Source: Armatimonadota bacterium
Lineage (GTDB): Bacteria; Armatimonadota; UBA5829
Reading direction: 5' to 3'
NCBI GenBank assembly: GCA_039679645.1
Contig: JBDKUO010000009.1
Span: forward strand, 7,168-71,167
Length of the DNA stretch: 64,000 bases
The notes under the pieces are model-generated. The model made no database searches. It saw only the letters and a list, made by a program, of their open reading frames with translations, and was not told the DNA's origin. The translations under genes were made by a program, and so were the position numbers. The stretch's first letter is position 1, and every line of letters starts with the position of its first letter. Below, in pieces: positions 10,808 to 42,997 of this stretch.

Positions 10808-12757
10808 CTATTTCCTGTTTTCTGTCGATGCGGCTTTTAGTGTTTGTGCTTCACGTTCGGCTGACCAGACTGGAAAAGCGAGAAGAGGACCGTATACAGG
10901 TATGCTGTGGTCTTCGCCGTTCAGCTTATAGTTTATCATTAAATCATAACCGGAGAGGTCGAGTCCTGTTGGGATTTCGACTGATGTCCCCGCTCCATTG
11001 ACTGTTGCATATCTATCCTTTGCCGGTTTCTTCGAGACATGCATTACCATGGTCGAAATGATCGCAGGATCAGTCAGCGCCAGATTGTTCTGCTTGAAGC
11101 TCTCCTTGCCGGCTTCAGCGTCAGATTCAGATGATGTGGAGAATGCGGGCTCGGGAGACGGATGTTGCCGCATTTTTTCAGCGCGGAAGAAGTCGGCTAT
11201 CCAAGTTGAGTCGAACTTGCCAAGCGGCAGGCCATCGTTCGACTTGGCAAGCTGCTTATCTTCGGGTGTGAGCGCGTCATAAAGTCTCCACGCAGGGTTC
11301 AATTTCCACTGATACAAGTTCTGAAAATCATCTGTATAAACCACCCATTCGATCGCCGATGGTTCCGGAATGTTCGACAGGTGAATTGCATCCTCCAGTG
11401 TAATACCGTCTCCGTTGAGTTTTGCCTTGAGGTCATTGAGATATTCCTCAGACAGCAGATTGACATGGTGGTCCCGCCAGTTTTGCCGTCCGTTATTTTG
11501 CCAGCCTACAACCAGCCTGTCACCCTCATTGGCGAACCAGGTGCTGCCATTAAACTTGTTGAGAAAAGTAAGTATGGCGGACTCTGGAGGGACACTGAGA
11601 ATACCGTCTATTCTCTGACGTTCCCGAGTCTGCTGGCTGATGAAATCCTCGGTCACAATATTGCACTTACCAGCCTGCGCGATGGCACGGATCGCTTTGG
11701 CGAAGGTTAAGTCTTTCGCACTCAGAGACTTTTCAAGCGTGATTTTGTTCACCAGAAATGATTCGCTTGTTGTGTCATCGGACTTACGGTCTGATAATGG
11801 AGCCATTTCAGGGTTAGCCATGTCATCTTTCAGGCTCGGTATTGGCTCTGCCTTTGGACGCAATGACAAGCCCGCGACCTTGTCCTGCAACGGTGCGGTA
11901 TCAGGAAGATCGCCTAAAATACAAAAGCTGGTATAACCACCGTCGTCAGTTTTTATTGGTCCTGGCTCAAACTCCGCTAGGATGCTGGCTTCAGCTCCAT
12001 CATCTACTAACTTAATACCCAAAAGGACATTCTGCATTTTCTCAAAAGGAGGATAAGACATATTCGAAGGATTGTACGCTTCTTTGCTTATAAACTGGTA
12101 ATGCTGCTCCATGTATGCGCTGTTTGCAGGATCGCTGCCCCGGAGTGTGAGCGTGTCACCATTGAGCAATTTGTCCTTGGAATCGGGGCCGAGACTGGAA
12201 ATCATTTTCGCCATGACCCACGTTTCTTTGAGCGAAGGATCGTCAGGGGGATTGTCGTTGGATTTGCCATAGGCTGTCAGAGCATCCCACTGCCATGCGG
12301 CATCTTCCATGGAATGGTCGTGCTTCTTTTGTATGTAAGTATTTATACTGTCTTGATCTGCTGACCTGCGATAGATACGGTAGCTCTTCTTAGGATTATC
12401 GCCTATCTTCTCAGATATAAACCTCGTGTGTGTCGCGTCTGCTATCGCCCTCAGGAGCTTGGCAAGCGGCAAGTCTTTTACGCAGACCACGACCGGTATG
12501 TCGCGTACTTTCCAATCATTCTTGTTCTGACCGCAGAGTATATCTACGCCGGTCATTTGGCTCAGATCATCCGTAACATTATGAAGGCGTTTGTAGCCGC
12601 TGTCGTAGGTGATCTTTTGCGCCAGGCGGGAGTCTACCTCCGGCTTGGGCTTTGCTATGGTATTGGGATCGACTCTGACCACACCCACAGCTCCAGCTTG
12701 CACATGCATTGAAATCAAAACCGCAAAACACAGAATTGCCGATTGCAAATACCGCAT
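10808..12757 (-). CDS. secreted hypothetical protein
   Basis: 649 aa with a signal peptide MRYLQSAILCFAVLISMHVQAGA. There are two internally similar segments (KDLPLAKLLRAIADATHTRFI and KDLTFAKAIRAIAQAGKCNIV) reminiscent of STN/secretin-N-type short domains. I recognise no family for the rest. Confidence 0.6.
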   Translation of the reverse strand: MRYLQSAILCFAVLISMHVQAGAVGVVRVDPNTIAKPKPEVDSRLAQKITYDSGYKRLHNVTDDLSQMTGVDILCGQNKNDWKVRDIPVVVCVKDLPLAKLLRAIADATHTRFISEKIGDNPKKSYRIYRRSADQDSINTYIQKKHDHSMEDAAWQWDALTAYGKSNDNPPDDPSLKETWVMAKMISSLGPDSKDKLLNGDTLTLRGSDPANSAYMEQHYQFISKEAYNPSNMSYPPFEKMQNVLLGIKLVDDGAEASILAEFEPGPIKTDDGGYTSFCILGDLPDTAPLQDKVAGLSLRPKAEPIPSLKDDMANPEMAPLSDRKSDDTTSESFLVNKITLEKSLSAKDLTFAKAIRAIAQAGKCNIVTEDFISQQTRERQRIDGILSVPPESAILTFLNKFNGSTWFANEGDRLVVGWQNNGRQNWRDHHVNLLSEEYLNDLKAKLNGDGITLEDAIHLSNIPEPSAIEWVVYTDDFQNLYQWKLNPAWRLYDALTPEDKQLAKSNDGLPLGKFDSTWIADFFRAEKMRQHPSPEPAFSTSSESDAEAGKESFKQNNLALTDPAIISTMVMHVSKKPAKDRYATVNGAGTSVEIPTGLDLSGYDLMINYKLNGEDHSIPVYGPLLAFPVWSAEREAQTLKAASTENRK

Positions 12758-18187: not shown

Positions 18188-18446
18188 AATAGTTGAGAGA
18201 TGAGAGTGGAGAGCAAAGAGCCCGGATTTCCACTGCTCAGTTACTTCATATTATTAACAACAAAACGAGGAACGCCATGCATCCCCCGCCCTACTTTATT
18301 CTACGGTAAGCGGCTGGGACTGTCAAACGTGAAGGGCAAGTTCTCAGCGCACGAATATGCTTCAGATACGGTTGTGCCGAAGCAGTTCCACAAGATGACA
18401 AACCTTCGGGGCATCCGCCCGCGAAGTATAAATGTCACTTTTTGCT

Positions 18447-19130
18447 CTAGACAAACATATTCTCACATTCTTCTTTTAGTTCTACTTGCCTTGGCCTCTC
18501 ACCGCGCAGGAAGAAGAATGCCAAGGCAGCCGTGATCACTCCAGCCAAAGCCCAAGTATAAGGAGCGATTGCAAGTGCGCCCTGAGCTGTCCTGAATATG
18601 CCGAAGCCTAAAAATATCATACCGGCGCCGATCTTTATGGGGCGCTCCGGCAGGTGTTTGCCCATCAACTGACCCACCATGATTGCGAGGCCATCGGCGA
18701 CCACCATTCCAGTAGATGAGCCGAGCCAGACAGGTATCAACGGCTTGTCGGCAGCGAATGCGACCGTGCCCAGCATCGTCTTATCGCCGAGTTCGGCAAG
18801 GAAAAATGTAGTAAAGATCAGCCAGAACGGCGATTTGCTCTGGATGTTCTTACACTCGTTGTCTTCCAAGCTGTCGCCGCGCAGAGTCCACAGCCCAAAA
18901 CCGATAAAAGCCAGCCCTGCCGTAAATCCAACCCACTCAGGCGGCAAAAGCCTGCCTACCCCGCCTCCAAGCAGCACTGAAAAGACATGCACGACCAGAG
19001 TGGCACTGAATATGCCGGCGAGTGTGACACGCGTGTTATAACGGCTGGCAAGACACAAGGCGACAAGCTGCGTCTTATCTCCCATCTCCAAGCCGAATAC
19101 ACCGGCCATCGATACCCAGAATGATCCCAA
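18447..19130 (-). CDS. UPF0016 / GDT1-TMEM165 family cation (Mn2+/Ca2+) transporter
   Basis: 227-aa polytopic protein with the duplicated family signature E-x-G-D-K-T (LEMGDKTQL and AELGDKTML). Confidence 0.85.
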   Translation of the reverse strand: MGSFWVSMAGVFGLEMGDKTQLVALCLASRYNTRVTLAGIFSATLVVHVFSVLLGGGVGRLLPPEWVGFTAGLAFIGFGLWTLRGDSLEDNECKNIQSKSPFWLIFTTFFLAELGDKTMLGTVAFAADKPLIPVWLGSSTGMVVADGLAIMVGQLMGKHLPERPIKIGAGMIFLGFGIFRTAQGALAIAPYTWALAGVITAALAFFFLRGERPRQVELKEECENMFV

Positions 19131-19455: not shown

Positions 19456-21192
19456 TTGAGCAGCAGTCAGCGATCAAAACTTCTCATATCAGCCCTATTG
19501 GTATTGGTGACGGGCATCGTATATGGACAGGTAGCCGGTTTTGGATTCCTCAACTATGATGATAACTTGTATGTCATCATCAACCGCCATATAGTCGGCC
19601 TTACCGTCCAAAACCTGCGATGGGCCGCAACCGGGGTAATAAACAGCAACTGGCAGCCGCTTGTATGGCTGTCATATATGTTCGATTCGCAAATAGCCGG
19701 ACTTGATCCCGGAATCTTTCACCTCACCAACCTGATGCTGCATATCGCAAACACTCTGCTCCTGCTCTTCCTATTGCACCGGATGACCGGCTCGCTGTGG
19801 CGCAGCTCATTTGTGGCAGCCCTGTTTGCGCTGCACCCGCTGCATGTGGAGTCCGTAGCATGGGTTGCCGAGCGCAAAGATGTACTCAGCACTCTCTTCT
19901 GGCTGCTCACCATTCTCCTTTACGTTCGATATGTCGAAAAGCCGTCTTTGGGCAGATACGTTTGGGTGCCCGTTGTCTTTGCCCTCGGCCTTATGGCTAA
20001 GCCCATGTTGGTCACGCTGCCGATCATTCTGCTTCTGCTCGATTACTGGCCGCTTGGCAGGCTTCAGAGCAAACAGATAATCACTCAGCAAAAGCCTAAC
20101 AGTAATGATTCCACACCGGTTCCGTTGAGGCAGCTTATCATGGAAAAAGTGCCGCTGCTGCTGCTTTCGACAGCTGTGGGGATTGTGACGGTAATAACGC
20201 AAAAGTCGAGCGGAGCGATTAAGGAACTTGGTATATTCTCGATGGGAGTAAGAACGGCGAATGCCGTGTTCAGCTACATTGCATACCTCTGTAAGACAAT
20301 ATGGCCGACTAATCTTGCGCCTTTTTATCCGCATCCCGAAAACTCACTGCCGACGTGGGAGGTCGCGGGCAGCGCAATTCTCGTTATTGCTATAACATGG
20401 TTTGTCGCACGGTCTCGACGGCACCCCTATGCGCTGGTCGGCTGGCTTTGGTATCTGATTACGCTGCTGCCCGTGATCGGACTGGTCCAGGTCGGAGCAC
20501 AGGCAATGGCCGACAGGTACACATATGTCCCTATGATAGGGATCGGCATAATGATCGCGTGGGGCATTCCGAGCATTATTCCACAAAGACAGTATAAAGC
20601 AATTGCGGTGCTTGCCATCGGAGTAATCGCAGCTTTTTCGATATGCACGTATCAGCAGGTCGGGTATTGGCGTAATGACACTACGCTGTTCAGCCATTCG
20701 GTCGAAGTTGTAAAAGACAACTTCGTAGCGCACAACAACCTCGGAACGGTGCTGCTGCTTAGAGGTAAAAATGAAGCAGCGTTAGCGCACTTCCGTGAGG
20801 CGGCGCGAATCGAACCCAGGTGCATGCGCGCTCAGTTTAATGTAATCAATCTGTTATACATCATGGGCGACGTGGATGGAGCCATTAAACAGACATATAA
20901 CCTGCTTAATCGCTTTCCACACGAAGGACGCGCATACTTAAGGCTCGGCATTATATACCTCAGGCAATCAAAGCTGGACCTTGCGGAAAAGAACATCAGG
21001 CAGGCGCTGCGCGAATCCCCCGACGATCCCAAGGCTCATCAAGCTATGGGAATGCTGCTTCTTAAAAGAGGAAAAGCCGACGAGGCCGTTATTAGGCTAT
21101 CGGAGGCTGCCAAGCTTTCGCCGGACGACACCGACATACGAAAAAGGCTCAAATATGCGAAATCGCTGAAAGCTCGCAAGGCTGCAGACTAA
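19456..21192 (+). CDS. GT-C-fold membrane glycosyltransferase (TMTC/PMT-like, DUF1736-type) with C-terminal TPR domain, paralogue 1 of 4
   Basis: 578 aa, TTG start. The polytopic N-domain carries NYDD, FHLTNLMLHIANTLLL and HPLHVESVAWVAERKDVLSTLFWLL. The C-terminal ~170 aa form TPR repeats ending YAKSLKA. Confidence 0.75.
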   Translation: MSSSQRSKLLISALLVLVTGIVYGQVAGFGFLNYDDNLYVIINRHIVGLTVQNLRWAATGVINSNWQPLVWLSYMFDSQIAGLDPGIFHLTNLMLHIANTLLLLFLLHRMTGSLWRSSFVAALFALHPLHVESVAWVAERKDVLSTLFWLLTILLYVRYVEKPSLGRYVWVPVVFALGLMAKPMLVTLPIILLLLDYWPLGRLQSKQIITQQKPNSNDSTPVPLRQLIMEKVPLLLLSTAVGIVTVITQKSSGAIKELGIFSMGVRTANAVFSYIAYLCKTIWPTNLAPFYPHPENSLPTWEVAGSAILVIAITWFVARSRRHPYALVGWLWYLITLLPVIGLVQVGAQAMADRYTYVPMIGIGIMIAWGIPSIIPQRQYKAIAVLAIGVIAAFSICTYQQVGYWRNDTTLFSHSVEVVKDNFVAHNNLGTVLLLRGKNEAALAHFREAARIEPRCMRAQFNVINLLYIMGDVDGAIKQTYNLLNRFPHEGRAYLRLGIIYLRQSKLDLAEKNIRQALRESPDDPKAHQAMGMLLLKRGKADEAVIRLSEAAKLSPDDTDIRKRLKYAKSLKARKAAD

Positions 21193-21194
21193 AA

Positions 21195-22958
21195 ATGAAG
21201 TTGAACACCAGCAGGCAGACGACTATTATTATATGCGCTCTCCTTGTAATCCTGACAAGCATTGTATATTGCCAGGTGGCCGGCTTCAAGTTTCTGGTAT
21301 ATGACGACCCGCTGTATGTAGTCAATAACCCCAAAATTAATGGCCTTACTGCCTCTAACTTAAGCTGGGCTATAAAAGGAGTGGTAAACAGCAATTGGCA
21401 GCCGCTGGTATGGCTGTCATACATGCTCGATTCGCAAATCGGCGGGGTCGATTCGGGAGTATTTCATCTCACAAACCTGTTACTGCACATAGCCAATACG
21501 CTGCTTCTGCTTTATCTGCTCAAGCGAATGACCGGCTCATTATGGCGAAGCGCGTTTGTGGCGGCGATATTTGCGCTTCATCCGCTGCATGTGGAGTCTG
21601 TCGCTTGGATTTCGGAACGCAAAGACGTGCTCAGCACGCTATTCTGGCTGCTGACTATGCTGGTCTACATTCGGTATGCCGAAAAACCGAGTTTGCGGCG
21701 GTATGTTCTGGTGCCGATGGTCTTTGCCCTCGGCCTTATGGCAAAACCCATGCTGGTCACGCTGCCGGTCATTCTGCTTCTGCTCGACTACTGGCCTCTT
21801 GGCAGGCTGGGGACTAAGCAAGATATCGCAGGGCAAAAAACGAGCATCAAAGAATATCCGAAAACCCCATTGAAAAACCTTATATATGAGAAGCTGCCAT
21901 TATTTGCGCTTGCGTTTGCTGTGGGGATCGTGACCATATTGACTCAGAAGGCAAGCGGCGCAATGCAGGAACTCGACAAGTATCCTTTTGGTGTGAGGGC
22001 GGCAAACTCGGCTTTCAGTTGTGTGACATACCTGAGGAAGATGCTCTGGCCGAGTGATCTTGCGGCATTTTATCCGCATCCCAAAAACTCGCTGCCGTCC
22101 TGGCAGGTAGTGGTCTGTGTAATGCTGATCGCTGCTCTGACCTGGCTCGCCGCACGCGCAAGACGACATCCGTATGTGCTGGTCGGCTGGCTCTGGTATT
22201 TAATTGCGCTGCTGCCTGTAATTGGGTTAATTCAGGTCGGCATGCAGGCAATGGCAGATAGATATGCATATATCCCTATGATCGGGATCGCTGTAGTGGT
22301 CGCGTGGACTGTACCTGACCTGGTCTACAAAAACACAAATCCGAATAAGCGCAGGATCGGTATTGTAGCGTCCGCCGCGATCATTGCAATTGCCGCCTTT
22401 ACAATCTGCACGTATTATCAGATAGGCTACTGGCGCGATAATGCGGCGCTGTTTGGTCATGCGATAGAGATTATTCCAAACAACTACACTGCGCACAACG
22501 ACCTAGGAGTGGCGCTGATGTATCGCGGAGAAAACCAGGCCGCTCTGGAACAGTTTCGCGAGGCAGTGCGGATCGAACCGGGCTGTTTGCGCGCTCAATA
22601 TAACCTTATCAATCAGTTGTATATCATGGGCGATACAGACGGAGCTATAAAGCAAACACATACTCTGCTTAGGAGCTTCCCTCATGAAGGACGCGCTTAC
22701 TTAAGGCTCGGCATAATGTATCTTCGGCAGTCCAAACTAGAGCCTGCGGAAAAGTATATAAGGCAGGCGCTGCGCGAATCCCCGAACGATGCCAAGGCTC
22801 ATCAAGCGATGGGAATGCTGCTTCTTAAGCAGGGAAAGATCGACGAGGCCATTATTAGGCTATCGGAGGCTGCAAAACTCTCGCCGGGAGACCCAAATAT
22901 TAATAAGAGGCTTATATACGCGCAATCGCTGAAAGCTCGGAGCAAAGCAACCAGATGA
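21195..22958 (+). CDS. GT-C-fold membrane glycosyltransferase (TMTC/PMT-like) with TPR domain, paralogue 2 of 4
   Basis: 587 aa, starting 2 nt after the stop of paralogue 1. It has the same motif set (VYDD, FHLTNLLLHIANTLLL, HPLHVESVAWISERKDVLSTLFWLL). Its TPR domain is nearly identical to that of paralogue 1. Confidence 0.75.
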   Translation: MKLNTSRQTTIIICALLVILTSIVYCQVAGFKFLVYDDPLYVVNNPKINGLTASNLSWAIKGVVNSNWQPLVWLSYMLDSQIGGVDSGVFHLTNLLLHIANTLLLLYLLKRMTGSLWRSAFVAAIFALHPLHVESVAWISERKDVLSTLFWLLTMLVYIRYAEKPSLRRYVLVPMVFALGLMAKPMLVTLPVILLLLDYWPLGRLGTKQDIAGQKTSIKEYPKTPLKNLIYEKLPLFALAFAVGIVTILTQKASGAMQELDKYPFGVRAANSAFSCVTYLRKMLWPSDLAAFYPHPKNSLPSWQVVVCVMLIAALTWLAARARRHPYVLVGWLWYLIALLPVIGLIQVGMQAMADRYAYIPMIGIAVVVAWTVPDLVYKNTNPNKRRIGIVASAAIIAIAAFTICTYYQIGYWRDNAALFGHAIEIIPNNYTAHNDLGVALMYRGENQAALEQFREAVRIEPGCLRAQYNLINQLYIMGDTDGAIKQTHTLLRSFPHEGRAYLRLGIMYLRQSKLEPAEKYIRQALRESPNDAKAHQAMGMLLLKQGKIDEAIIRLSEAAKLSPGDPNINKRLIYAQSLKARSKATR

Positions 22959-24730
22959 AGCTAAAAAGCCCAAAATATAAATCCGGCAGTCATACTACAT
23001 TTTTCATATGCATTCTGCTTATAGTTCTGACATCTGCAGTATACTGGCAGGTTACCGGGTTCAAATTGCTGTCTTTTGACGACACAAAGTTTGTCACCAA
23101 CAACTCGCATATAAAGGGCCTGACGGGACCGAATCTGCGATGGGCCATGACCGGATCCATAAACGGCAACTGGCAGCCGGTTATCTGGCTCTCATATATG
23201 CTGGATGCGCAGTTTCATGGGCTCGATGCCGGAGCATTTCATCTCACTAACCTGATACTGCATATAGCCAATACGCTGCTATTACTGCTCCTGCTTTATC
23301 GAATGACCGGCTCACTCTGGAAAAGTGCGTTTGTAGCGGCGGTATTTGCGCTGCATCCGCTGCATGTGGAATCGGTCGCGTGGATATCAGAGCGCAAAGA
23401 CGTGCTCAGCACTCTCTTTTGGCTGCTCACTATGCTGGCCTATATTCGATATGCAAAAAAGCCGAGTTTACGAAGGTATATTCCGGTGCCGATAGTCTTT
23501 GCACTTGGACTAATGGCTAAGCCTATGCTGGTAACGCTGCCTGTCATACTGCTTCTGCTGGATTACTGGCCTCTGGGCAGGCTGCAGATCAAGAAAAATG
23601 CAACACAAGACGCCAAAACTACCAAGCTGAAACACGCGATAAGTGAAACCCCGCCCGCGTCGCTGAAACTGCTTGTTCTGGAAAAAGCGCCGCTGGTTTT
23701 ACTTGCGCTGGGAGCTTCGATTGTAACCATACTTACTCAAAGATCAAGCGGCGCAATGGATGAATTTAACATCTACCCACTTGGCATGCGAGCAGCAAAT
23801 GCAGTATTCAGTTATATCGTCTATCTCAGAAAGATGATTTGGCCGAATGACCTCATCGCGTTTTATCCGCATCCGGAAGGCACACTGCCGGTCTGGATGG
23901 TGTTGGGAAGTGTGATTCTGATTGCTGTTCTGACGTGGCAAGCAATTCGATCTCACAGATACCCGTATGCATTATTCGGCTGGCTGTGGTATCTGATCAC
24001 TCTTATACCTGTGATCGGGCTGGTACAGGTCGGCGCACAGGCTATGGCCGATAGATACACATACATCCCTATGATCGGGATCAGTATTATTATCGCCTGG
24101 GGCGTGCCGGACCTATTACATAACAGGAACAAGCCCGGGCGCAGCGTTGCGTTCGCTGCAATCGCAGTAATTATCACGCTCACAGTATGCACTTATCGGC
24201 AGGTCGGCTACTGGCACGATGATATTGCACTTTTTAGCCATGCTATTGATGTTGTCCCAAATAATGCTCCGGCACATAACAATCTCGGTGGAGAATACTA
24301 CAGGCAGGGAAATGTGGACGCCGCCGAGTTACAGTTTCGCGAGGCAGTGCGTATTAATCCACGGTTTGATGGATTTCAGCACAACCTTGCTTCGCTGCTG
24401 TATGAGCAAGGACGTTATGACGAACTGGCGACTTGCCTGCACAAGGCTCTGAAATTCTTCCCTGAAGACGACCAAGCTCACGCGTTGCTCGGCATAATAT
24501 ATATACAGCAATCCAAGCTCGATCTTGCAAAAATTCACCTTAGAAAAGCTGTCAGACTGAAACCGACTAACTCTATGGCACAAGGATTTCTGGGGGGATT
24601 GTTGACCAGGACAGGTGAAATTGATGAGGCTATCGACCATCTGTCTAAAGCAGTGGAGCTTTCACCCGAAAATGAAAATTACCGGGACGGGTTGGAATAC
24701 GCAAAATCAATAAAGCTCAAAGTGGATTAG
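22955..24730 (+). CDS. GT-C-fold membrane glycosyltransferase (TMTC/PMT-like) with TPR domain, paralogue 3 of 4
   Basis: 591 aa with an ATGA start/stop overlap with paralogue 2. It has SFDD plus the same membrane-domain motifs. Its TPR domain diverges from those of paralogues 1 and 2. Confidence 0.75.
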   Translation: MKLKSPKYKSGSHTTFFICILLIVLTSAVYWQVTGFKLLSFDDTKFVTNNSHIKGLTGPNLRWAMTGSINGNWQPVIWLSYMLDAQFHGLDAGAFHLTNLILHIANTLLLLLLLYRMTGSLWKSAFVAAVFALHPLHVESVAWISERKDVLSTLFWLLTMLAYIRYAKKPSLRRYIPVPIVFALGLMAKPMLVTLPVILLLLDYWPLGRLQIKKNATQDAKTTKLKHAISETPPASLKLLVLEKAPLVLLALGASIVTILTQRSSGAMDEFNIYPLGMRAANAVFSYIVYLRKMIWPNDLIAFYPHPEGTLPVWMVLGSVILIAVLTWQAIRSHRYPYALFGWLWYLITLIPVIGLVQVGAQAMADRYTYIPMIGISIIIAWGVPDLLHNRNKPGRSVAFAAIAVIITLTVCTYRQVGYWHDDIALFSHAIDVVPNNAPAHNNLGGEYYRQGNVDAAELQFREAVRINPRFDGFQHNLASLLYEQGRYDELATCLHKALKFFPEDDQAHALLGIIYIQQSKLDLAKIHLRKAVRLKPTNSMAQGFLGGLLTRTGEIDEAIDHLSKAVELSPENENYRDGLEYAKSIKLKVD

Positions 24731-24735
24731 GTCTG

Positions 24736-26535
24736 ATGAAACTGGGCAGTCACAATAAAACGTTTCTTCTGATATCCGTTCTGCTGGTAATTGTAACCGG
24801 TATCGTATACCGGCAGGTGACCGATTGCAAGTTCCTGGCCTTCGACGATCCGGGGTTTGTCACCAACAACCCGCATATTAAGGGCCTGACGGGACCGAAT
24901 CTGCGATGGGCCATGACCGGAGTGGTAAACGGCAACTGGCAGCCTGTAATCTGGCTCTCGTATATGCTGGACGCGCAGTTTCATGGGCTCGACGCCGGAG
25001 CATTTCATCTCACTAACCTGATACTGCATATAGCCAATACGCTGCTGTTACTACTTCTGCTTTATCGGATGACAGGATCACTCTGGAAAAGTGCGTTTGT
25101 GACGGCGGTGTTTGCGCTGCACCCGCTGCATGTGGAATCGGTCGCGTGGGTATCCGAACGCAAAGACGTGCTCAGCACTCTCTTTTGGCTGCTCACTATG
25201 CTGGCTTATATTCGATATGCTAAAAAACCGCGTTTTCGACGATATGTATGGGTGCTGGTAGCATTTGCTCTAGGTCTTGCAGCTAAACCAATGCTGGTGA
25301 CGCTGCCGATAATACTGCTTCTGCTGGACTACTGGCCTTTGGGCAGGATGCAGTTCAATAAAAATGTAAAACCTGATTCCAAAGTAAATAAGCAAAAACA
25401 GAGTATTGATAAGTCGCCGTCGGTGCCGTTGAAGTTGCTTGTATTGGAAAAATTACCGCTGATAGTATTGGCATTGGGCGCATCAGTTGTAACCGTGTTG
25501 ACTCAGAGATTATGCGGCACGGTACAAAAAATTGATACATATCCGATCGGAGTAAGGGCAGCAAACGCGGCTTTCAGTTATGTCGTATATCTTAGGAAAA
25601 TGATATGGCCGAGTGACCTTACCACATTCTACCCGCACCCAGGCGCCTCACTTGCACTTTGGCAGGTCCTGGGAAGCGCGGCCCTGGTAATTGCCCTGAC
25701 ATGGCTTATAGCGCGATCTCGCAGACAACCTTATGCAATAGTCGGGTGGATGTGGTATTTGATAACGCTTGTGCCTGTGATCGGGCTGGTTCAGGTCGGC
25801 GCACAGGCGATGGCGGACAGATACACATACATCCCTATGATAGGGATCGCAATTTTGATCGCATGGTCCGTGCCGGACATTCTCCTTCGAAATAGGGAAA
25901 GTTCAATTAAGCACAAAAGAGTCAGCCGTGGTAAAGCAGGTATGGCTCCGGTTGCATTTATTGCAATCGCCGCTATCGCCGCGCTCGCAGTCTGCACGTA
26001 TCGACAGGTCGGCTACTGGCAAGACGACTTCGCGCTGTTTAATCAAAATACTAAAATCGTCGGCAGGAACAGCTTGGCGAACGAAATCATTGGCAACGCA
26101 TATTACAAACAGGGGAAACTAGACATAGCAGAGCAGCATTTTCGTGAGGCTATAAGTATCTTGCCTGATTATTTCGACGCGCGACAAAGTCTTGCTTCAA
26201 TGCTGATAAAACAACAACGATACGAAGAAGCGGAAAGCTTCCTGAACGAAACACTGAAGTATTATCCAAATAACGCCCAAGCCCACATGCAGTTGGGCCT
26301 CGCATACTTAGAACTGGCCAAGTTGGATTCGGCTCAGGAACATCTTTGCGAGGCTATTAGGATAAGACCACGCAAAGCTATGGCACATGAAATCCTTGGT
26401 ATTGTGCTGGTTAAAAAGGGAAAAATCGACGAAGCGATAGAGCATTTATCAAAGGCAGTGGAGATATCTCCCGATAATGCAGGATTCCAGGAAGGTCTTG
26501 CATACGCCAAATCACTTAAGCTCGGGAAACAATGA
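24736..26535 (+). CDS. GT-C-fold membrane glycosyltransferase (TMTC/PMT-like) with TPR domain, paralogue 4 of 4
   Basis: 599 aa with AFDD plus the same motifs. The first ~170 aa are almost identical to paralogue 3, including at DNA level. Its TPR domain differs from all three others. Confidence 0.75.
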   Translation: MKLGSHNKTFLLISVLLVIVTGIVYRQVTDCKFLAFDDPGFVTNNPHIKGLTGPNLRWAMTGVVNGNWQPVIWLSYMLDAQFHGLDAGAFHLTNLILHIANTLLLLLLLYRMTGSLWKSAFVTAVFALHPLHVESVAWVSERKDVLSTLFWLLTMLAYIRYAKKPRFRRYVWVLVAFALGLAAKPMLVTLPIILLLLDYWPLGRMQFNKNVKPDSKVNKQKQSIDKSPSVPLKLLVLEKLPLIVLALGASVVTVLTQRLCGTVQKIDTYPIGVRAANAAFSYVVYLRKMIWPSDLTTFYPHPGASLALWQVLGSAALVIALTWLIARSRRQPYAIVGWMWYLITLVPVIGLVQVGAQAMADRYTYIPMIGIAILIAWSVPDILLRNRESSIKHKRVSRGKAGMAPVAFIAIAAIAALAVCTYRQVGYWQDDFALFNQNTKIVGRNSLANEIIGNAYYKQGKLDIAEQHFREAISILPDYFDARQSLASMLIKQQRYEEAESFLNETLKYYPNNAQAHMQLGLAYLELAKLDSAQEHLCEAIRIRPRKAMAHEILGIVLVKKGKIDEAIEHLSKAVEISPDNAGFQEGLAYAKSLKLGKQ

Positions 26536-26536
26536 T

Positions 26537-27295
26537 ATGTTTCAGAATAAAAAAGTAGTTGTAGTAATGCCGGCGTATAATGCCTCCGAAACTCTGCGCA
26601 AGACACATGATGAAATCCTGGCTCAGGGCGTTGTGGACCTGGTAATAGTGGTCGATGACGCGAGCAATGACGAGACTGTTGAGATCGCCCGAACTCTGCC
26701 GAACACTGTTGTCATGGTGCATGAGAAAAACAAGGGATACGGGGCAAACCAAAAGACATGTTACAGGCTTGCGCTTGAAGAAGGCGGCGACATCATAATC
26801 ATGGTCCACCCGGACTACCAGTATACGCCCAAGCTGATACCCGCTATGGCATGCCTCATAGGAAATGGACTCTATAGCTGCGTCATTGGGTCGCGCATAC
26901 TGGGAGGCCATCAGCGTGCAATAAAGCAGGGCATGCCCATCTGGAAATATGCAGCCAACCGTTTCTTGACTGCGACTGAAAACGTAATGATGGGAGTCAA
27001 ACTTTCAGAGTACCACACCGGCTACCGGGCTTTTTCAGCCGAACTGCTCAGAGAATTGCCGCTGGAGAAAAACTCGGACGACTTTGTGTTTGACAACCAG
27101 ATGCTTGCGCAGATTATCTGGCTTGGTTACCAGATAGGCGAGATAAGCTGCCCGACCAAATATTTCCCCGAGGCTTCGTCCATCAACTTCAGAAGAAGCG
27201 TGGTCTACGGCTTCGGCTGCCTGCGAACTGCCGCTGAGTTTCTTTTGACAAAGCTCGGCATCATAAGGGCCGGTTATCTGCCTGATAGGAAGTAG
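26537..27295 (+). CDS. GT2 glycosyltransferase, DPM1/GtrB-like (candidate polyprenyl-phosphate hexose synthase)
   Basis: The ATG at 26537 lies 1 nt after the stop of paralogue 4; the ORF-track upstream extension overlaps that gene. Motifs: VVVVMPAYNASETL, VIVVDDASNDET, GYGANQK, IIMVHPDYQY, plus an amphipathic C-terminus. No TM segment was seen. Confidence 0.8.
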   Translation: MFQNKKVVVVMPAYNASETLRKTHDEILAQGVVDLVIVVDDASNDETVEIARTLPNTVVMVHEKNKGYGANQKTCYRLALEEGGDIIIMVHPDYQYTPKLIPAMACLIGNGLYSCVIGSRILGGHQRAIKQGMPIWKYAANRFLTATENVMMGVKLSEYHTGYRAFSAELLRELPLEKNSDDFVFDNQMLAQIIWLGYQIGEISCPTKYFPEASSINFRRSVVYGFGCLRTAAEFLLTKLGIIRAGYLPDRK

Positions 27296-37480: not shown

Positions 37481-38938
37481 TCAGCGCAGATAGACAGTCG
37501 CGATGACGTTTTGTCCCGGTCTGAGTACTACCCCCTTCGGCAGTGATTGGTCCAGAACTATCTTCACAGGGATGCGCTGCACCACCTTGACGAAGTTGCC
37601 TGTCGCATTCTCCGGCGGCAAAAGACTGAACTGGGCTACCGTTGCCGCCCCGATGCTGTTTACGCGGCCTCTGAGCCTTATGCCGGGGTATGAGTCCACG
37701 GTAAATGTCGCCCTCTGGCCGGGGTGCATGCGGCCTGTCTGAGTCTCTTTGAAGTTGGCGACCACCCAGACATTCGTAAGCGGGACTACGGCCATCAGCA
37801 TCTGGCCGGGCTGGACATATTGACCGATCTGAACACCCTTCTCGCTGACAACTCCCCTGACAGGCGCTTTTATATTTGTGTATGAAAGCAGCAGGCGATC
37901 ATTATTTAGTTGAGCAATGCTCTGCTTGACTGCTGCCTTGGCAGCGCCTCTTTGAGACTTGCTGATAGATATCTGCTCGGGAACCGTCTGAGTGCCTGCA
38001 AAAGCAGCCTGGGACTGTTTAAGGAGCGCACGCGCACGCGCAGCTTCCGACCTGGCGGTCTCAACGCCTGCCTTAGCCTGATCGGATGCATCCATTGCAG
38101 CGGCTAACTGGGAATTGTCGCGTTTCAGGACTGCTTTTGTACCCGCAAGGCTCGCTATGGCACGGTTTAGGGCTGCTTTGGAGCCGGCTACCTGTTGTCG
38201 GGCCGCGTTGAGCGCCGCCTGGGCGCTGGTATTTGTGGTCTGAAAGCTTTCGAACTGCTGTGCGGACGCTGCACCTGCGGTATAGAGTTCTTTGTATCTG
38301 GCATAATCGCTGGCAGCTTTTTTGGCCTGAGCAGCAGCAGATGCCGCATTCGCCTCAGCGGCTTTCACCGCCGCCTCGGCTGCAGTGACCTGAGCGGCGG
38401 CGGCATTGACATCCGTGCGCGCCGCCTCGACCACATCCCGCGAGGCTCTTACTTGAGCGTCTGCTGATCTTGCCTGCGCAATCGCGGCGATCACCTGGTT
38501 GTTCGCGCTCGATACAGTAGCCTGGGCGTTCTTTACGGCTGCCTTGGCCTGATCCAGCGATGAAGGAGCAGTCTTACCGACAACCGAGACCTGCCTGTTG
38601 CTTACAGACTCCTGCGCTATCGCCGCATCCACCGCTGCTGAAGACTTACGGACCCGATCCACATACTCTTTTCGATCGAGCCTAACAAGGAGATAACCCT
38701 TATCCACAAGCTGGTTGTCGTTTACGTTGATCTCGACGACGTGACCCGCAATGCGAGGACTAATCGGAACGAGGTGGCCTGCGACCTGGGCGTCATCGGT
38801 CGATTCCTTGCCTAGGCTCAGAATCCAATACACCAGCACACCAATGCCGACAAGAAGGATTACGCCGATCACGATGATGGCTCTTTTGCGGGCCGCAAAG
38901 AACTTGCTCAGCCTCGATACTTGCTGCTCGTCGTTCAA
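37481..38938 (-). CDS. emrA: HlyD/EmrA-family membrane fusion protein with extended Ala-rich coiled coil
   Basis: 485 aa with an N-terminal TM segment and a lipoyl-like motif (VAGHLVPISPRIAGHVVEINV.DNQ.V.KG..L..LD). A ~230-aa A/Q/K-rich hairpin region and a C-terminal beta-barrel (VPLTNVWVVANFKETQ) follow. Confidence 0.85.
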   Translation of the reverse strand: MNDEQQVSRLSKFFAARKRAIIVIGVILLVGIGVLVYWILSLGKESTDDAQVAGHLVPISPRIAGHVVEINVNDNQLVDKGYLLVRLDRKEYVDRVRKSSAAVDAAIAQESVSNRQVSVVGKTAPSSLDQAKAAVKNAQATVSSANNQVIAAIAQARSADAQVRASRDVVEAARTDVNAAAAQVTAAEAAVKAAEANAASAAAQAKKAASDYARYKELYTAGAASAQQFESFQTTNTSAQAALNAARQQVAGSKAALNRAIASLAGTKAVLKRDNSQLAAAMDASDQAKAGVETARSEAARARALLKQSQAAFAGTQTVPEQISISKSQRGAAKAAVKQSIAQLNNDRLLLSYTNIKAPVRGVVSEKGVQIGQYVQPGQMLMAVVPLTNVWVVANFKETQTGRMHPGQRATFTVDSYPGIRLRGRVNSIGAATVAQFSLLPPENATGNFVKVVQRIPVKIVLDQSLPKGVVLRPGQNVIATVYLR

Positions 38939-39106
38939 AGTCCCTTCCTCTCAATTACAGATGAAGTTTTACCAAGGAATACTGTGTGTGAAACTTTAAC
39001 GGAACTATCAAGGGAGCTGACTGCGTATCCGTATTTGTATGCTTGCAACAAATTATTGATCAGAGCGTATAAATTGCTTGACTATAAGCCCAAGCGCAGG
39101 AATAAT

Positions 39107-40273
39107 ATGTATGGAATCTCGGCTCACGGAGGCTACCGGCTGATGAAGGCTACTTATATTGTAATAGCGATATTGATGCTTGTCGGTTCTATACTGCCTA
39201 TGGCGGCTATAGCGGACGGCTCGAAGTTGGCTGTAGGTGACGTGATCGACGTGGCTGTCGACGGCGAGAAGGACTTCTCCAAGCACTATCAGATCAACAG
39301 TGACGGCTGCATACTAATGCCGATGGTCAACTCCGTGAAGATCGAAGGCCTCAACACATCGGACGCATCTGCTGAAATCACCAAATCTCTTAAGAGCGTG
39401 CTCGTAAACCCACAGGTAAGTGTGTCTTTCGTGGAGCGCGCGAAGATGCAGGTGTTTGTGGTCGGTCAAGTCAACAAACGCGGGTTGATTGAAATAGGAG
39501 TCGGCGACAGGGTTTTACAGGCGCTAGCGCAGGCCGGTTATGACGATACAGCAGATCTCTCGCGTGTAAATATCAGAAGAGGCGACGAGATAATAGACCT
39601 GGACCTCACCAAATACTTATCCGGTGAAGATTTGACCGTTAACAGACAGTTGGAGTCGGGAGACACCGTAGTCGTATCTCGATTGGATATGATAGGCACG
39701 GTAATGGCGTCAGGGCAGGTCAGCAAGGTCGGCTCAATCCCACTCAAACGCAACATGACTTTTCGTGAGGCTATTGGCCTGGTGGGTGGAATTACTGTTG
39801 AGGCCGATCCGGCGAAGATTACTGTAAAAAGAGAAGGTATCGCCGAACCTATTAAAATCGACTATGAAAAGGCTATGGCGGGAGATCCCACCGCAGATAT
39901 CGCGCTCGCGCCCGGTGACATAATATATGTGTCCGAACTGGAGATATCCTATTTCACGATATGGGGCGGAGTCAACAAACCTGGACAATACCCTATTAAA
40001 GGGAAGCTGGCGCTCAGCGAAGCAATCGGTGTAGCGGGAGGCGCAGTTACCAATGTTGGAGACATCCGTGCAATCAAGATCATGCATGCCTCCGGACCCG
40101 AGGCAAAGGTTGGCGAATCGGTCACGGTTGACCTTACACAGGTCATCAAAGGCACTGCGGACGAACCCCAAGTCAGGCGCGGAGACGTTATATACGTAAC
40201 GGAGCATAAGCAAAAACCAAATCTCTGGAATGCGCTCCAGACGCTCTCGCCGTTTTGGTGGATTTTCAGGTAG
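39107..40273 (+). CDS. polysaccharide export protein (Wza-like: Poly_export + SLBB repeats)
   Basis: Signal/TM segment MKATYIVIAILMLVGSILPMAAIA, a Poly_export-like segment (LAVGDVIDVAV.G....S..YQINSDGCI.MP.V..VKIEGL), and repeated SLBB-like units (V.V.G.V.K.G). The start is either ATG 39107 or ATG 39143. The ORF-track start at 38921 overlaps emrA and is unlikely. Confidence 0.7.
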   Translation: MYGISAHGGYRLMKATYIVIAILMLVGSILPMAAIADGSKLAVGDVIDVAVDGEKDFSKHYQINSDGCILMPMVNSVKIEGLNTSDASAEITKSLKSVLVNPQVSVSFVERAKMQVFVVGQVNKRGLIEIGVGDRVLQALAQAGYDDTADLSRVNIRRGDEIIDLDLTKYLSGEDLTVNRQLESGDTVVVSRLDMIGTVMASGQVSKVGSIPLKRNMTFREAIGLVGGITVEADPAKITVKREGIAEPIKIDYEKAMAGDPTADIALAPGDIIYVSELEISYFTIWGGVNKPGQYPIKGKLALSEAIGVAGGAVTNVGDIRAIKIMHASGPEAKVGESVTVDLTQVIKGTADEPQVRRGDVIYVTEHKQKPNLWNALQTLSPFWWIFR

Positions 40274-40478: not shown

Positions 40479-40615
40479 CAAAAAGTATGCTCGGCTGTGA
40501 ATACCTGCACGACAATTTGACTTTGCGGGATTTGCCGTCAGTTAGTGCGTCGGGTCGATATGCCGGCAAGCAAAACGGACGTATTGATTCATTGGGAAAG
40601 GAGGATGTAATTACT

Positions 40616-41128
40616 ATGGCAAAAAGAATCGTATTAATTGCTGCGGTTGTAATGCTCATTGGCATGGCTATGTCAGCACATGCGATGGCATACAACTCAA
40701 TTCTCACAGGCACCCTCGGCAATGTAAACGTAAATGCCACTGCCACTCTCACAGGCGGCATTTGGGACTATGTTTACGTTGTATCCCCGACGAACGTGCC
40801 CGCCCTGAATGGCCAGTTGCACAGTTTCAGCATAGGCAATCCTGGGCTGTTTCCGTATTTCGGAACCGCATCCAGTGACCCCACTTTCACATGGGCCAGC
40901 ACTCTGGTAGATACCGTGCGATGGGAGAATGGACTTCCGACGTCAAGTCCTGTAACATTCAGTTTCAAGTCCATATATGAACCCGGCTATGTTGACTGCA
41001 GCGCACAGAACGGCGGTCATGCAAGCACAGGTAAGACACTGGGAATGGTGCCTGAGCCGATAAGTATGATCCTGGGATCACTTGGCCTTTGCTGCGTTGC
41101 GGGGCTAAAGAGGCTGCGAAGAAAATAA
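40616..41128 (+). CDS. PEP-CTERM sorting-domain protein (exosortase substrate)
   Basis: 170 aa with a signal peptide MAKRIVLIAAVVMLIGMAMSAHA. The C-terminus VPEPISMILGSLGLCCVAGLKRLRRK gives the PEP motif, a TM helix and a basic tail. Confidence 0.85.
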   Translation: MAKRIVLIAAVVMLIGMAMSAHAMAYNSILTGTLGNVNVNATATLTGGIWDYVYVVSPTNVPALNGQLHSFSIGNPGLFPYFGTASSDPTFTWASTLVDTVRWENGLPTSSPVTFSFKSIYEPGYVDCSAQNGGHASTGKTLGMVPEPISMILGSLGLCCVAGLKRLRRK

Positions 41129-41209: not shown

Positions 41210-42997
41210 CTACTGAAGAGCTGGTTGATAAATCTGCAGTTCGTCCGATGCAAAAGGCCCCAGATCCGTCTGCTTATACCCTTTTATAGAATCAAACACT
41301 TCCGCATTTCTCTGGTTTTGTTGAAAAAATTTATTAGCTGCTTCTGTCTGTTCAGGGCTTCGGCCTATATCTTTTGCATATGCGCGAATCCGACTAAGAA
41401 CCTTATCAGGATTAGCAATGTATTCACGCTGTATCTTTGTTGTGTAAAGCTTATACCACGTCTCATCAGTTGGATAACTGCGAGACTCGGACGTTAGAAC
41501 AATAACATTCATCGAATACCCATCTTGGACTAGCTTCGAAATGTCTGCATCAGAACGAGGCAGCCAGACAGCAACCTCATTTTCGGTTCGCCATGCAGCA
41601 AGCCATGGAATATCCGTATACATGCATGTCACACCTAATTTGTCTCCCTGAGACATTATAGCTGATGCCTCAAGCATTTTATCTGCTTGTTCATTGGTTG
41701 CCCATACAATTGCACTTACCGCCGGCCAGGAAGTGATTAATATAACCCCTATTAATATGCCTTTCAAAAAGATTGGGTGAAGTTTTTTTGCATCTAGAAG
41801 CAAGAACAAGTATGCACTACCGAATACGGATGCAGCGGGGGCAATTAATATCAAAGCATTATTTCCAAGGCTGAAAAGTGCAATACACATGAGAAAAATT
41901 GGAGCAAGGACATAAAGCACTCCCCTGACCGCGTTTGCAGACGGCGATTTGAACTTATATAGCATGCTCACGACCGCAAGCGGCAGTATTACCATCCCCA
42001 GTATCGACAGCATATCGCCGACCGCACCGGAGGTGCCTGCCATCAACTTTTGCGAGAAAGATGAGAAGTGCTCCATGGGATATAGTAAAACTCCGGCAAT
42101 ACCACGACCTGCCGCATCTATGCTCCTGTAAAACGTATTGCCGGGAAACTCGCTTGTATCGGCCATTATGTCCCAGGCATTGGCGCCCAGAATAGATCCG
42201 CCGGTCAGTTCTGCATTCCTGTATGCCCATGGCGCGACTGCAATTGCTGTTACCATCATAAATAAAACCAGGTGCTGTATACGTCTGGAACCGGTTACTG
42301 CAAAATACAGAGCAACGGGAATAAACAAAAACAAGAGAGCCTGATGGGTCATATAAAGCAGGCAGATCAGTATGGCTGATGCAACTACATAAAAATAGCC
42401 TGCCCTGCCGCCGCCGGACAGGGAGTTCTTATGGTGCGCTGCAATTGCAAGCATTAGCAAGACAAACCAGAATGCTGCCATCGGCCACTCACTTGCCGAT
42501 GTGGCTGACTGCAGGACAAACACAGAAGTGCCCATGCCCACCGCAGCCAATATACCGATGCGCCAGTCAAAGAGCATTCTTCCAAGAATAAATGTCGCTA
42601 TCAAAGTAAGAAAACCAAATATCATCGACATTCGCACAACTGCCTGGTCAGATACTTGGGTATATCTGAAGGCAGCAGCAACAACATATGGGTAGAGGGG
42701 TCCATGGTTTATTTCAGGCAGAGGAGCAGGCACATCCTTCAACAGCCCTGCGTTGAACGGCCTGACAAAGCGCGTCGTAAAACCTTTGCCGGTCGATATG
42801 TTCAAAGAAATCTGCGCAATGTCCATCTGATCGCGGGTAGTCAGCCAGGGATGGTTCTGCAGATAATACCCGCCCATGACCGCTCCCAGCACAACAAATA
42901 TCCCGACCATTGCAAGGATATGGTTCCAATTGATGCCACGATCCTGCAAAGTGAGCCTCTTCGCTTTACTAATGCGGCTTCCCTCTGCGACACTCAT
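41210..42997 (-). CDS. polytopic membrane protein, probable GT-C (ArnT/PMT_2-like) glycosyltransferase
   Basis: 595 aa with ~12 TM segments and a ~150-aa soluble C-terminus. The first loop has acidic residues (TRDQMDIAQ) and an hPPLY-like INHGPLYPYVVAAAF, as in ArnT/PMT_2 enzymes. Confidence 0.5.
   Translation of the reverse strand: MSVAEGSRISKAKRLTLQDRGINWNHILAMVGIFVVLGAVMGGYYLQNHPWLTTRDQMDIAQISLNISTGKGFTTRFVRPFNAGLLKDVPAPLPEINHGPLYPYVVAAAFRYTQVSDQAVVRMSMIFGFLTLIATFILGRMLFDWRIGILAAVGMGTSVFVLQSATSASEWPMAAFWFVLLMLAIAAHHKNSLSGGGRAGYFYVVASAILICLLYMTHQALLFLFIPVALYFAVTGSRRIQHLVLFMMVTAIAVAPWAYRNAELTGGSILGANAWDIMADTSEFPGNTFYRSIDAAGRGIAGVLLYPMEHFSSFSQKLMAGTSGAVGDMLSILGMVILPLAVVSMLYKFKSPSANAVRGVLYVLAPIFLMCIALFSLGNNALILIAPAASVFGSAYLFLLLDAKKLHPIFLKGILIGVILITSWPAVSAIVWATNEQADKMLEASAIMSQGDKLGVTCMYTDIPWLAAWRTENEVAVWLPRSDADISKLVQDGYSMNVIVLTSESRSYPTDETWYKLYTTKIQREYIANPDKVLSRIRAYAKDIGRSPEQTEAANKFFQQNQRNAEVFDSIKGYKQTDLGPFASDELQIYQPALQ

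Follow-up and report, generated by a model that had tools for sequence, protein, structure and literature searches.

A five-gene locus of an Armatimonadota bacterium with four TMTC-like GT-C glycosyltransferases and a DPM1-like GT2: a candidate extracytoplasmic glycosylation operon

Protein O-glycosylation by way of lipid-phosphate monosaccharides and GT-C glycosyltransferases is an established process in eukaryotes, where it has PMT, TMTC and TMEM260 as examples, and in actinobacteria; for streptococci it has been established recently. Nothing comparable has been described for the Gram-negative environmental phyla. The subject of this paper is a group of five abutting genes in the genome of an Armatimonadota bacterium (GCA_039679645.1, contig JBDKUO010000009.1): four tandem paralogues that encode TMTC-like GT-C proteins with C-terminal tetratricopeptide repeat (TPR) domains, followed by a gene for a soluble GT2 glycosyltransferase. 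"The window" denotes the whole 64,000-nt stretch that was analysed, and all positions are window coordinates.

The actinobacterial pair Ppm1/Pmt (Pmt being a GT39 enzyme) accomplishes protein O-glycosylation with one GT2 and one GT-C protein. Bacterial GT2 + GT-C protein O-glycosylation is likewise established in streptococci, for GtrB/PgtC2 and PgfS/PgfM1 (PMC11092751). TfpW of Pseudomonas aeruginosa is a pilin O-arabinofuranosyltransferase, that is, an enzyme with a protein acceptor (bioRxiv 10.1101/2020.04.19.049825). The TMTC family itself has been named CAZy family GT105 (PMC10214176), and the existence of TMTC homologues "even among prokaryotes" was noted by Eisenhaber et al. (PMC7801869). 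The literature searched yielded no paper characterising the bacterial TMTC-like family or its GT2 partner; TfpW appears there only as an architectural analogue.

A first, sequence-only reading of the window took the array for a candidate undescribed periplasmic O-glycosylation module. The architecture does have bacterial precedent: TfpW shares it (a GT-C domain of 11 transmembrane helices followed by a periplasmic TPR domain, acting on pilin), and the streptococcal GT2 + GT-C systems are known. The novelty of the array was overstated in another sense also, for the family is extremely common: the bacterial TMTC-like proteins form 18,566 clusters (50 % identity, E <= 1e-30), and their annotations go no further than "tetratricopeptide repeat protein", "TadD" or "protein O-mannosyl-transferase". 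The window locus is a typical, clean member of this widespread, uncharacterised bacterial TMTC branch, and GT2 + GT-C systems of this general kind are already established. With four paralogues and a synthase in one operon it offers a clean example, not one that is unusual within its family.

Four TMTC-like enzymes in one operon

The five genes are arranged as follows.

19456-21192, + strand: paralogue A, 578 amino acids (TTG start); TMTC-like GT-C domain (residues ~1-405), then ~5 TPR repeats, predicted to be periplasmic
21195-22958, + strand: paralogue B, 587 amino acids; TMTC-like GT-C and TPR domains; the protein used for structure models
22955-24730, + strand: paralogue C, 591 amino acids; TMTC-like GT-C domain and a divergent TPR domain
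24736-26535, + strand: paralogue D, 599 amino acids; TMTC-like GT-C domain and the most divergent TPR domain
26537-27295, + strand: GT2, 252 amino acids, no transmembrane segment; predicted polyprenyl-phosphate hexose synthase (DPM1/Ppm1-like)

Genes A and B are separated by 2 nt, B and C overlap by 4 nt (ATGA), and C and D are separated by 5 nt; the TGA stop codon of D (26533-26535) is followed, after a gap of 1 nt, by the ATG of the GT2 gene at 26537. The mechanically generated open reading frame (ORF) of the GT2 opens further upstream, at 26477; the start is placed at 26537 because homologues are 247-256 amino acids long and have an N-terminus of the form MF..KKV. All five genes belong to a single operon. 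No promoter or terminator came up when the region upstream was scanned, nor did the operon give any match to Rfam, and the only copies of the four-paralogue family in the window are these four.

What had been read directly from the letters held up throughout. The four same-strand genes, their junctions and their sizes passed an ORF check, as did the start of the GT2 gene one nt past the fourth stop. The motifs that had been singled out (NYDD, VYDD, SFDD and AFDD; N.(H/K)I.GL; FHLTNL.LHIANTLLL; HPLHVESVAW..ERKDVLSTLFWLL) are all found in the sequences. The layout proposed for each protein, a polytopic membrane domain of ~410 amino acids followed by ~170 amino acids of TPR, is equally apparent, with TPR families of Pfam covering residues ~410-590 in each paralogue.

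Are A-D relatives of the TMTC proteins in particular, or only of GT-C enzymes in general? The comparison was made with the N-terminal domains of human and Drosophila TMTC1-4, as aligned in the supplement to Eisenhaber et al. 2021 (PMC7801869). With TMTC1-4 the bacterial family profile aligns in 385 of 410 columns, at an hhalign probability of 99.7 % (E 1e-25). BLASTP of B yields E 1e-20 against Drosophila TMTC2 (DmTMTC2) and 1e-14 against human TMTC1 (HsTMTC1); for seven of the eight TMTCs the values lie between 1e-20 and 1e-10, and for DmTMTC3 the value is 1e-5. The hidden Markov model (HMM) of the bacterial family matches all eight, with E from 1e-15 to 1e-26, and ArnT, from the same supplement, goes undetected by sequence comparison. 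With the TMTCs found by profile, BLASTP and HMM and ArnT undetected, A-D are by sequence true relatives, on the bacterial side, of the TMTC protein O-mannosyltransferases of animals and something beyond generic GT-C proteins; the link to TMTC that had been drawn from motifs is thereby borne out.

The seven TMTC motifs are retained to different degrees (invariance refers to 60-62 homologues):

M1: DD in TMTC; here D37 D38; conserved, invariant or nearly so
M2: SHKSYRP in TMTC; here NSNWQP; partial
M3: RxD in TMTC; here R142-K-D144; conserved, invariant
M4: KE(T/Q)xxT in TMTC; here K184-P-M-L-V-T189; partial
M5: DW in TMTC; aligns to F-Y here; not conserved
M6: PxxP in TMTC; here A..P341; partial
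M7: ERxxY in TMTC; here D355-R356-Y-x-Y359; conserved, invariant or nearly so

The DD motif is carried by all four paralogues. Across the homologues D37 is invariant and D38 at least 90 % conserved, and in the structure model the pair follows directly on the first transmembrane helix.

Profile and structure comparisons assign the membrane domain to the GT-C superfamily. Pfam PMT_2 (PF13231) matches residues ~80-200 at 31.3 (A), 32.3 (B), 29.4 (C) and 30.4 bits (D), so that the four proteins, spanning 29-33 bits, all lie above the family cutoff of 26.1 bits. AlphaFold2, with an alignment of 60 homologues, models full-length B with a predicted local distance difference test score (pLDDT) of 91.5 and a predicted template-modelling score (pTM) of 0.90. 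TPR repeats are a nuisance in searches of the PDB: in a full-length sequence search TPR matches swamp the result, the membrane domain alone finds no match by sequence, and Foldseek with the full-length model returns only TPR proteins. For that last reason the membrane domain of B (residues 1-410) was modelled separately (pLDDT 89.6, pTM 0.91). The top 27 Foldseek matches of this model in the PDB are all GT-C enzymes, with probabilities of 0.93-1.00 and TM-scores, normalised to the query, of 0.38-0.53; they include PglB, Chaetomium and yeast Pmt4, STT3 of the yeast and human oligosaccharyltransferases, AftD, AglB, ArnT, Pmt1/Pmt2, ALG9 and PIGU. The best of them are the protein-modifying PglB, Pmt4 and STT3, which rank above ArnT. 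With PMT_2 above threshold and only GT-C enzymes in the top 27, the membrane domains of A-D, as modelled, are of GT-C fold and fall inside the superfamily to which the sequence-only reading had allotted them. Of the luminal MIR domain that accompanies the membrane domain in PMT (CAZy GT39), or of another PMT-specific domain, none was found in these proteins, which have the TPR domain instead.

In the AlphaFold2 model 11 helices span the membrane, and a further 10 make up the ~5 TPR repeats that come after them; helix boundaries were taken from it, Kyte-Doolittle prediction of transmembrane segments being too noisy. Orientation was derived from the GT-C fold and from the placing of basic residues in the cytoplasmic loops of the model. 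One side presents the DD loop (31-86), the RKD turn, K184, the 255-301 loop and the DRY loop; the opposite side presents basic loops (KR 110-111, RR 168-169, 200-225, 322-325 and KRR 385-387). Because the basic loops lie opposite the DD loop in the model, the N-terminus is assigned to the cytoplasm and the DD loop and TPR domain, by the same inference, to the periplasm. This topology agrees with that of TMTC (PMC7801869) and with the experimentally supported topology of TfpW, and the 11-helix model thus lends support to the periplasmic TPR domain that had been predicted.

The paralogues are far more alike in their membrane domains (64-73 % identical for all pairs) than in their TPR domains: those of A and B are 71 % identical, and every other pair is at 34-47 % (C is 43-47 % identical to A, B and D; for D the range is 34-47 %). 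No residue of the catalytic motifs varies among A-D. A syntenic relative, the metagenome-assembled genome GCA_021371935.1 (locus L081), also has four GT-C-TPR genes and a GT2, preceded as in the window by HisF, HisH, AspRS, HisRS and GDT1 and followed, again as in the window, by an ABC ATPase, GNAT, a protease, a hydrolase, DUF362 and RCC1. Identities between same-position genes (r1-r4 in L081) are:

A and r1: membrane domain 80 %, TPR domain 76 %
B and r2: membrane domain 82 %, TPR domain 81 %
C and r3: membrane domain 70 %, TPR domain 52 %
D and r4: membrane domain 66 %, TPR domain 54 %

The two GT2 proteins are 91 % identical; evolution has been fastest in the C and D TPR domains. Each window paralogue is nearer to the L081 gene at the same position than to any of its own paralogues; hence the four copies predate the split between the two loci and have been individually maintained. 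Sequence comparison supports three TPR types (A≈B, C, D) on one catalytic chassis, and by analogy with animal TMTC1-4 the three types suggest different clients. Four transferases sharing a catalytic chassis and differing in their acceptor modules had been proposed: the chassis stands, its catalytic residues being invariant, and the number of module types drops from four to three, A and B being too similar (71 %) to count apart.

The GT2 and its genomic company

The GT2 matches Pfam PF00535 at 76.6 bits. Its best match in the PDB is the Pyrococcus dolichol-phosphate mannose (Dol-P-Man) synthase 5mlz, with E 1.9e-10 for the single sequence and 5.4e-13 for a profile of 28 sequences; ArnC is next for the profile, with E 1.7e-5. 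The best NCBIfam matches are to AglJ, haloarchaeal Dol-P-hexose transferase, PpgS and PgfS, all of them far below family cutoffs. No hydrophobic segment of transmembrane grade is found in its 252 amino acids, and C-terminal transmembrane helices of the type seen in GtrB, ArnC and the archaeal Dol-P-Man synthase (DPMS) are not present. For want of any transmembrane segment a processive membrane synthase is ruled out, and the candidacy of the GT2 as a processive polysaccharide synthase is rejected. Soluble versions of the polyprenyl-phosphate GT2 class exist, namely human DPM1 and mycobacterial Ppm1; it is presumably these that the window GT2, lacking transmembrane helices, resembles. The sequence-only reading had called it a soluble, DPM1-like GT2, and in that it was right: a DPMS is the best PDB match and there is no transmembrane segment, hence no processive enzyme.

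Orthologues of this GT2, 63-79 % identical across phyla, were found in no fewer than 594 genomes at species level (Desulfobacterota, Planctomycetota, Verrucomicrobiota, Acidobacteriota, Hydrogenedentota, Lentisphaerota, Gemmatimonadota, Nitrospirota). What company do they keep? Eighty orthologue loci were sampled, together with as much as 10 kb of sequence to either side. At 29 of the 80 the fetched stretch includes a TMTC-like family member, which at 22 loci is among the two genes nearest to the GT2; at other loci the gene directly upstream encodes a PMT_2-type GT-C that lacks TPR (clusters 1, 5, 9). Taken together, GT-C genes (PMT_2-type, by group HMMs) are found within 5 kb of the GT2 at 34/80 loci and directly adjacent on the same strand at 29/80; where at least 3 kb is available on both flanks, a GT-C is near the GT2 in 21 of 49. 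At further loci a YfhO-family GT-C takes their place: L015, L031 and that of the cultured Desulfonema magnum (L086, CP061800), whose GT2 is 74 % identical to the one in the window and is followed by the YfhO gene after 160 nt. Overall, a GT-C belonging to one or another of three families lies within 5 kb at ~45 % of the 80 loci.

The earlier reading had proposed to look in other genomes for co-occurrence of the array with the GT2; linkage of GT2 and GT-C is conserved across phyla (34/80 within 5 kb). One conserved GT2 pairs with three families of GT-C, and therefore behaves as expected of a lipid-phosphate-sugar synthase; the conserved linkage supports that assignment. A further observation concerns locus L007, where a fused sugar 4,6-dehydratase/DegT aminotransferase precedes the GT2. 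This gene hints that the sugar may differ between lineages. The other neighbours of the window array are not part of the pattern: GDT1, GNAT, protease, hydrolase, DUF362 and EmrAB were each found at 0/80 distant GT2 loci, and ABC ATPase matches, at 9/80, are by rough estimate no more frequent than expected of so generic a domain.

A proposed pathway and its rivals

The reading favoured here is of a two-step extracytoplasmic glycosylation operon, in which the GT2 synthesises the donor and the four GT-Cs transfer the sugar, with serine and threonine residues of envelope proteins as the favoured acceptors; we consider it somewhat better than evenly probable. 1) The GT2, soluble or peripheral at the cytoplasmic face of the inner membrane, would take one sugar unit, in all likelihood a hexose, from a nucleotide sugar and attach it to polyprenyl (undecaprenyl) phosphate, which is the reaction of DPM1, Ppm1, GtrB and ArnC; it is most likely the maker of the lipid-linked donor of the four GT-Cs. 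2) The lipid-linked sugar would then be flipped to the periplasmic leaflet by a flippase that the operon does not encode. 3) The four GT-Cs, whose fold and homology are the firm part of this step and whose chemistry is conjectural, would move the sugar from its lipid carrier to acceptors captured by the TPR domains. Their donor is predicted to be a polyprenyl-phosphate-linked sugar, with the adjoining DPMS-like GT2 as indirect support; their catalytic DD would lie in periplasmic loop 1, and the conserved R-K-D, K184 and D-R-Y.Y in periplasmic loops 2, 3 and 5. By homology to TMTC1-4 the acceptors would most likely be serine and threonine residues of periplasmic, outer-membrane or secreted proteins.

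One can go further and think of the operon as an instance of a general system of periplasmic protein O-hexosylation (possibly O-mannosylation) in several Gram-negative phyla, continuous with animal TMTC1-4, in which one soluble synthase feeds many TPR-addressed GT-Cs, each with particular envelope proteins to serve; the system would be widespread in Desulfobacterota, Planctomycetota, Verrucomicrobiota, Acidobacteriota and phyla related to them. This extension is tentative, and we put it at somewhat less than an even chance. The existence of solitary TMTC-like genes, to be noted presently, fits one synthase feeding many dispersed transferases.

A number of observations weigh against these proposals. 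On the side of the GT-Cs, identity to TMTC is only 22-27 %, and the acceptor class, protein or glycan, is read solely from homology of that order. The DW of M5, a proposed metal ligand, is replaced by F-Y, the Glu of M4 by Pro and the H-K of M2 by S-N. Pfam DUF1736 (PF08409), with which the sequence-only reading had associated the four proteins, is undetected in A-D even at E <= 10, and the loop that corresponds to the DUF1736 segment (between the seventh and eighth transmembrane helices) has ~47 amino acids here vs ~75 in TMTCs. With these three motifs changed and DUF1736 missing, donor or metal binding may therefore differ from that of TMTC. On the side of the GT2, residues 91-95, invariant in the family, are H-P-D-Y-Q where DPMS has D-A-D-L-Q: His stands in place of the first Asp, and both the second Asp and the Gln persist. 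The linkage is incomplete from either end: 55 % of GT2 orthologue loci have no recognisable GT-C neighbour, and the three GT-C-TPR homologues that were sampled on long contigs stand alone, with no GT2 nearby. A flippase gene of GtrA, ArnEF or MATE type was not found in the operon or its flanks (GDT1, HisRS, ABC ATPase, GNAT). Finally, the literature searched yielded no biochemical or genetic data on any member of the bacterial family.

If the enzymology is accepted, must the acceptor be a protein? The same enzymes might instead modify a glycan or lipid (exopolysaccharide (EPS), lipopolysaccharide core or lipid A, peptidoglycan), in which case the TPR domains would dock them on export or assembly machinery or would bind the polymer. 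We regard this as unlikely and nevertheless as a serious rival. ArnT, GtrABV-type O-antigen glucosylation and the three-component GT136 systems are precedents; the TPR part has weak NCBIfam matches to the export proteins PgaA, BcsC and PrsT; and orthologues of the GT2 also pair with YfhO-family GT-Cs. YfhO-family members of Bacillus subtilis and Listeria glycosylate teichoic acids. Their occurrence in these two has been remarked on (PMC11092751), and among the GT2 + GT-C systems of bacteria there are many that modify polysaccharides or lipid A (PMC11127046). The window, moreover, contains a large exosortase/PEP-CTERM exopolysaccharide locus (38921-64000, mostly - strand; its annotation reaches 46.9 kb):

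38921-40273, EPS locus: EPS export protein
40487-41128, + strand: PEP-CTERM protein, 213 amino acids; ends in a sorting signal (VPEP, hydrophobic helix, RLRRK); no NCBIfam match
42994-45392, EPS locus: two TIGR03087-type PEP-CTERM-system GT4 glycosyltransferases
45411-46055, EPS locus: EpsI
46019-46891, EPS locus: XrtA-like exosortase

Against a glycan or lipid acceptor stand the facts that the closest characterised relatives by sequence are TMTC1-4, ArnT being undetected; that protein-modifying PglB, Pmt4 and STT3 rank above ArnT in Foldseek; that the array is 15 kb from the EPS locus, with unrelated genes between; and that EPS genes are not linked to the GT2 in 80 other genomes. The last of these facts bears on the acceptors that the sequence-only reading had put forward, namely the PEP-CTERM protein, a secreted RCC1 protein and the EPS itself: RCC1, PEP-CTERM and the EPS export protein are each found at 0/80 GT2 loci, and no window gene is supported as acceptor.

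That the GT2 is a mere neighbour, a cytoplasmic GT-A enzyme working on a soluble or lipid-diphosphate-linked acceptor while the GT-Cs draw their donor from a synthase encoded elsewhere, seems to us improbable. NCBIfam scores far below the cutoffs, the atypical DxD motif (H-P-D), the lack of the C-terminal membrane helices of GtrB and ArnC, and the more than half of orthologues without a recognisable GT-C neighbour would all be accounted for in this way. It would leave to coincidence a gene that begins 1 nt past the stop of D and the ~45 % of distant-phyla orthologues that lie within 5 kb of a GT-C of three families (29/80 adjacent on the same strand), a linkage well above chance even with many GT-C paralogues per genome, by a rough estimate with no computed control; the best sequence matches, besides, are to polyprenyl-phosphate glycosyltransferases. 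Soluble members of the class, DPM1 and Ppm1, are generally known. A donor synthase remains the preferred role of the GT2.

Least probable of all is that the four genes are redundant copies, the result of tandem amplification with no division of labour, for which the similarity of the membrane domains (64-73 %) and of the A and B TPR domains (71 %) and the frequency of tandem arrays of 2-3 copies in other genomes might be cited: all four were already present in the common ancestor with L081 and have been retained as positional orthologues, and, with catalytic residues invariant, the TPR domains of C and D share no more than 34-47 % identity with the rest.

The remaining features of the window that were considered are these:

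10808-12757, - strand: large ORF, 649 amino acids; no Pfam match; 648-amino-acid counterpart in L081
18447-19130, - strand: GDT1/UPF0016 cation transporter, divergent from the array; syntenic in L081
27299-28564, - strand: orphan ABC-transporter ATPase, 421 amino acids, convergent, its stop 3 nt from that of the GT2; syntenic in L081
32790-35693, + strand: RCC1 protein, 967 amino acids; signal-peptide-like N-terminus; no NCBIfam match
41210-42997, - strand: large ORF, 595 amino acids; no NCBIfam match

In L081 the counterpart of the 967-residue protein has RCC1/WD40_RLD repeats. The orphan ABC ATPase has no permease gene next to it. Eukaryotic GDT1/TMEM165 supplies Mn2+ for Golgi glycosylation; since GDT1 is found at 0/80 distant GT2 loci, its place next to the array is probably a coincidence. 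A 111-amino-acid ORF at 18200-18535 was entertained as a GtrA-like flippase and rejected: it runs antisense to GDT1 and overlaps it, and gene calls in L081 show nothing at that place.

If the prediction is right, a large block of "tetratricopeptide repeat protein" annotations would turn into periplasmic glycosylation machinery; the bacterial members could become tractable structural and mechanistic models for the human TMTCs (the PDB search returned no TMTC structure); and the pattern of TPR swapping among paralogues would provide a direct handle on how client specificity is encoded.

Comparison with known systems

The animal TMTC1-4 are the nearest relatives. Homology extends across the whole N-terminal membrane domain, and both groups have 11 transmembrane helices, a DD pair in extracytoplasmic loop 1, the motifs FAxHPxH(T/V)E...R.D, HL.N..LH and (D/E)RxxY.P, and a C-terminal TPR domain on the non-cytoplasmic side; in both, several paralogues combine one catalytic module with differing TPR parts. 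The differences are that A-D are bacterial and would face the periplasm, whereas TMTCs face the ER lumen; that A-D have only ~5 TPR repeats; that M5 (DW) and the Glu of M4 are not kept; that the donor lipid must be a bacterial polyprenol, bacteria having no dolichol; and that A-D share an operon with their presumed donor synthase.

The streptococcal (GtrB/PgtC2, PgfS/PgfM1) and actinobacterial (Ppm1/Pmt) systems follow the same scheme: a GT-A/GT2 enzyme makes a polyprenyl-phosphate monosaccharide, and a GT-C passes the sugar to serine or threonine of extracytoplasmic proteins. Ppm1 shares with the window GT2 what we take to be the form of a soluble catalytic domain. In these systems, however, the GT-Cs are YfhO proteins or PMT proteins with a MIR domain and have no TPR, the hosts are Gram-positive, and the GT2s lie outside the distinct, highly conserved H-P-D family to which the window GT2 belongs.

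GtrABV, ArnC/ArnT with ArnEF and the GT136 systems (PMC11127046) also couple a lipid-phosphate sugar synthase to an extracytoplasmic GT-C; unlike the window operon they encode a dedicated flippase, and they act on O-antigen or lipid A. ArnT, for its part, has no detectable sequence similarity to A-D.

In architecture an analogue is TfpW, which by description is a bacterial GT-C whose N-terminus is cytoplasmic, with 11 transmembrane helices predicted, a DDx motif that is essential and, at the C-terminus, a sizeable TPR domain in the periplasm. Its setting is another matter: tfpW lies directly downstream of pilA, and its donor is decaprenyl-P-D-arabinofuranose, whereas the window array is flanked by housekeeping and unrelated genes, with no pilin or arabinofuranose genes among them.

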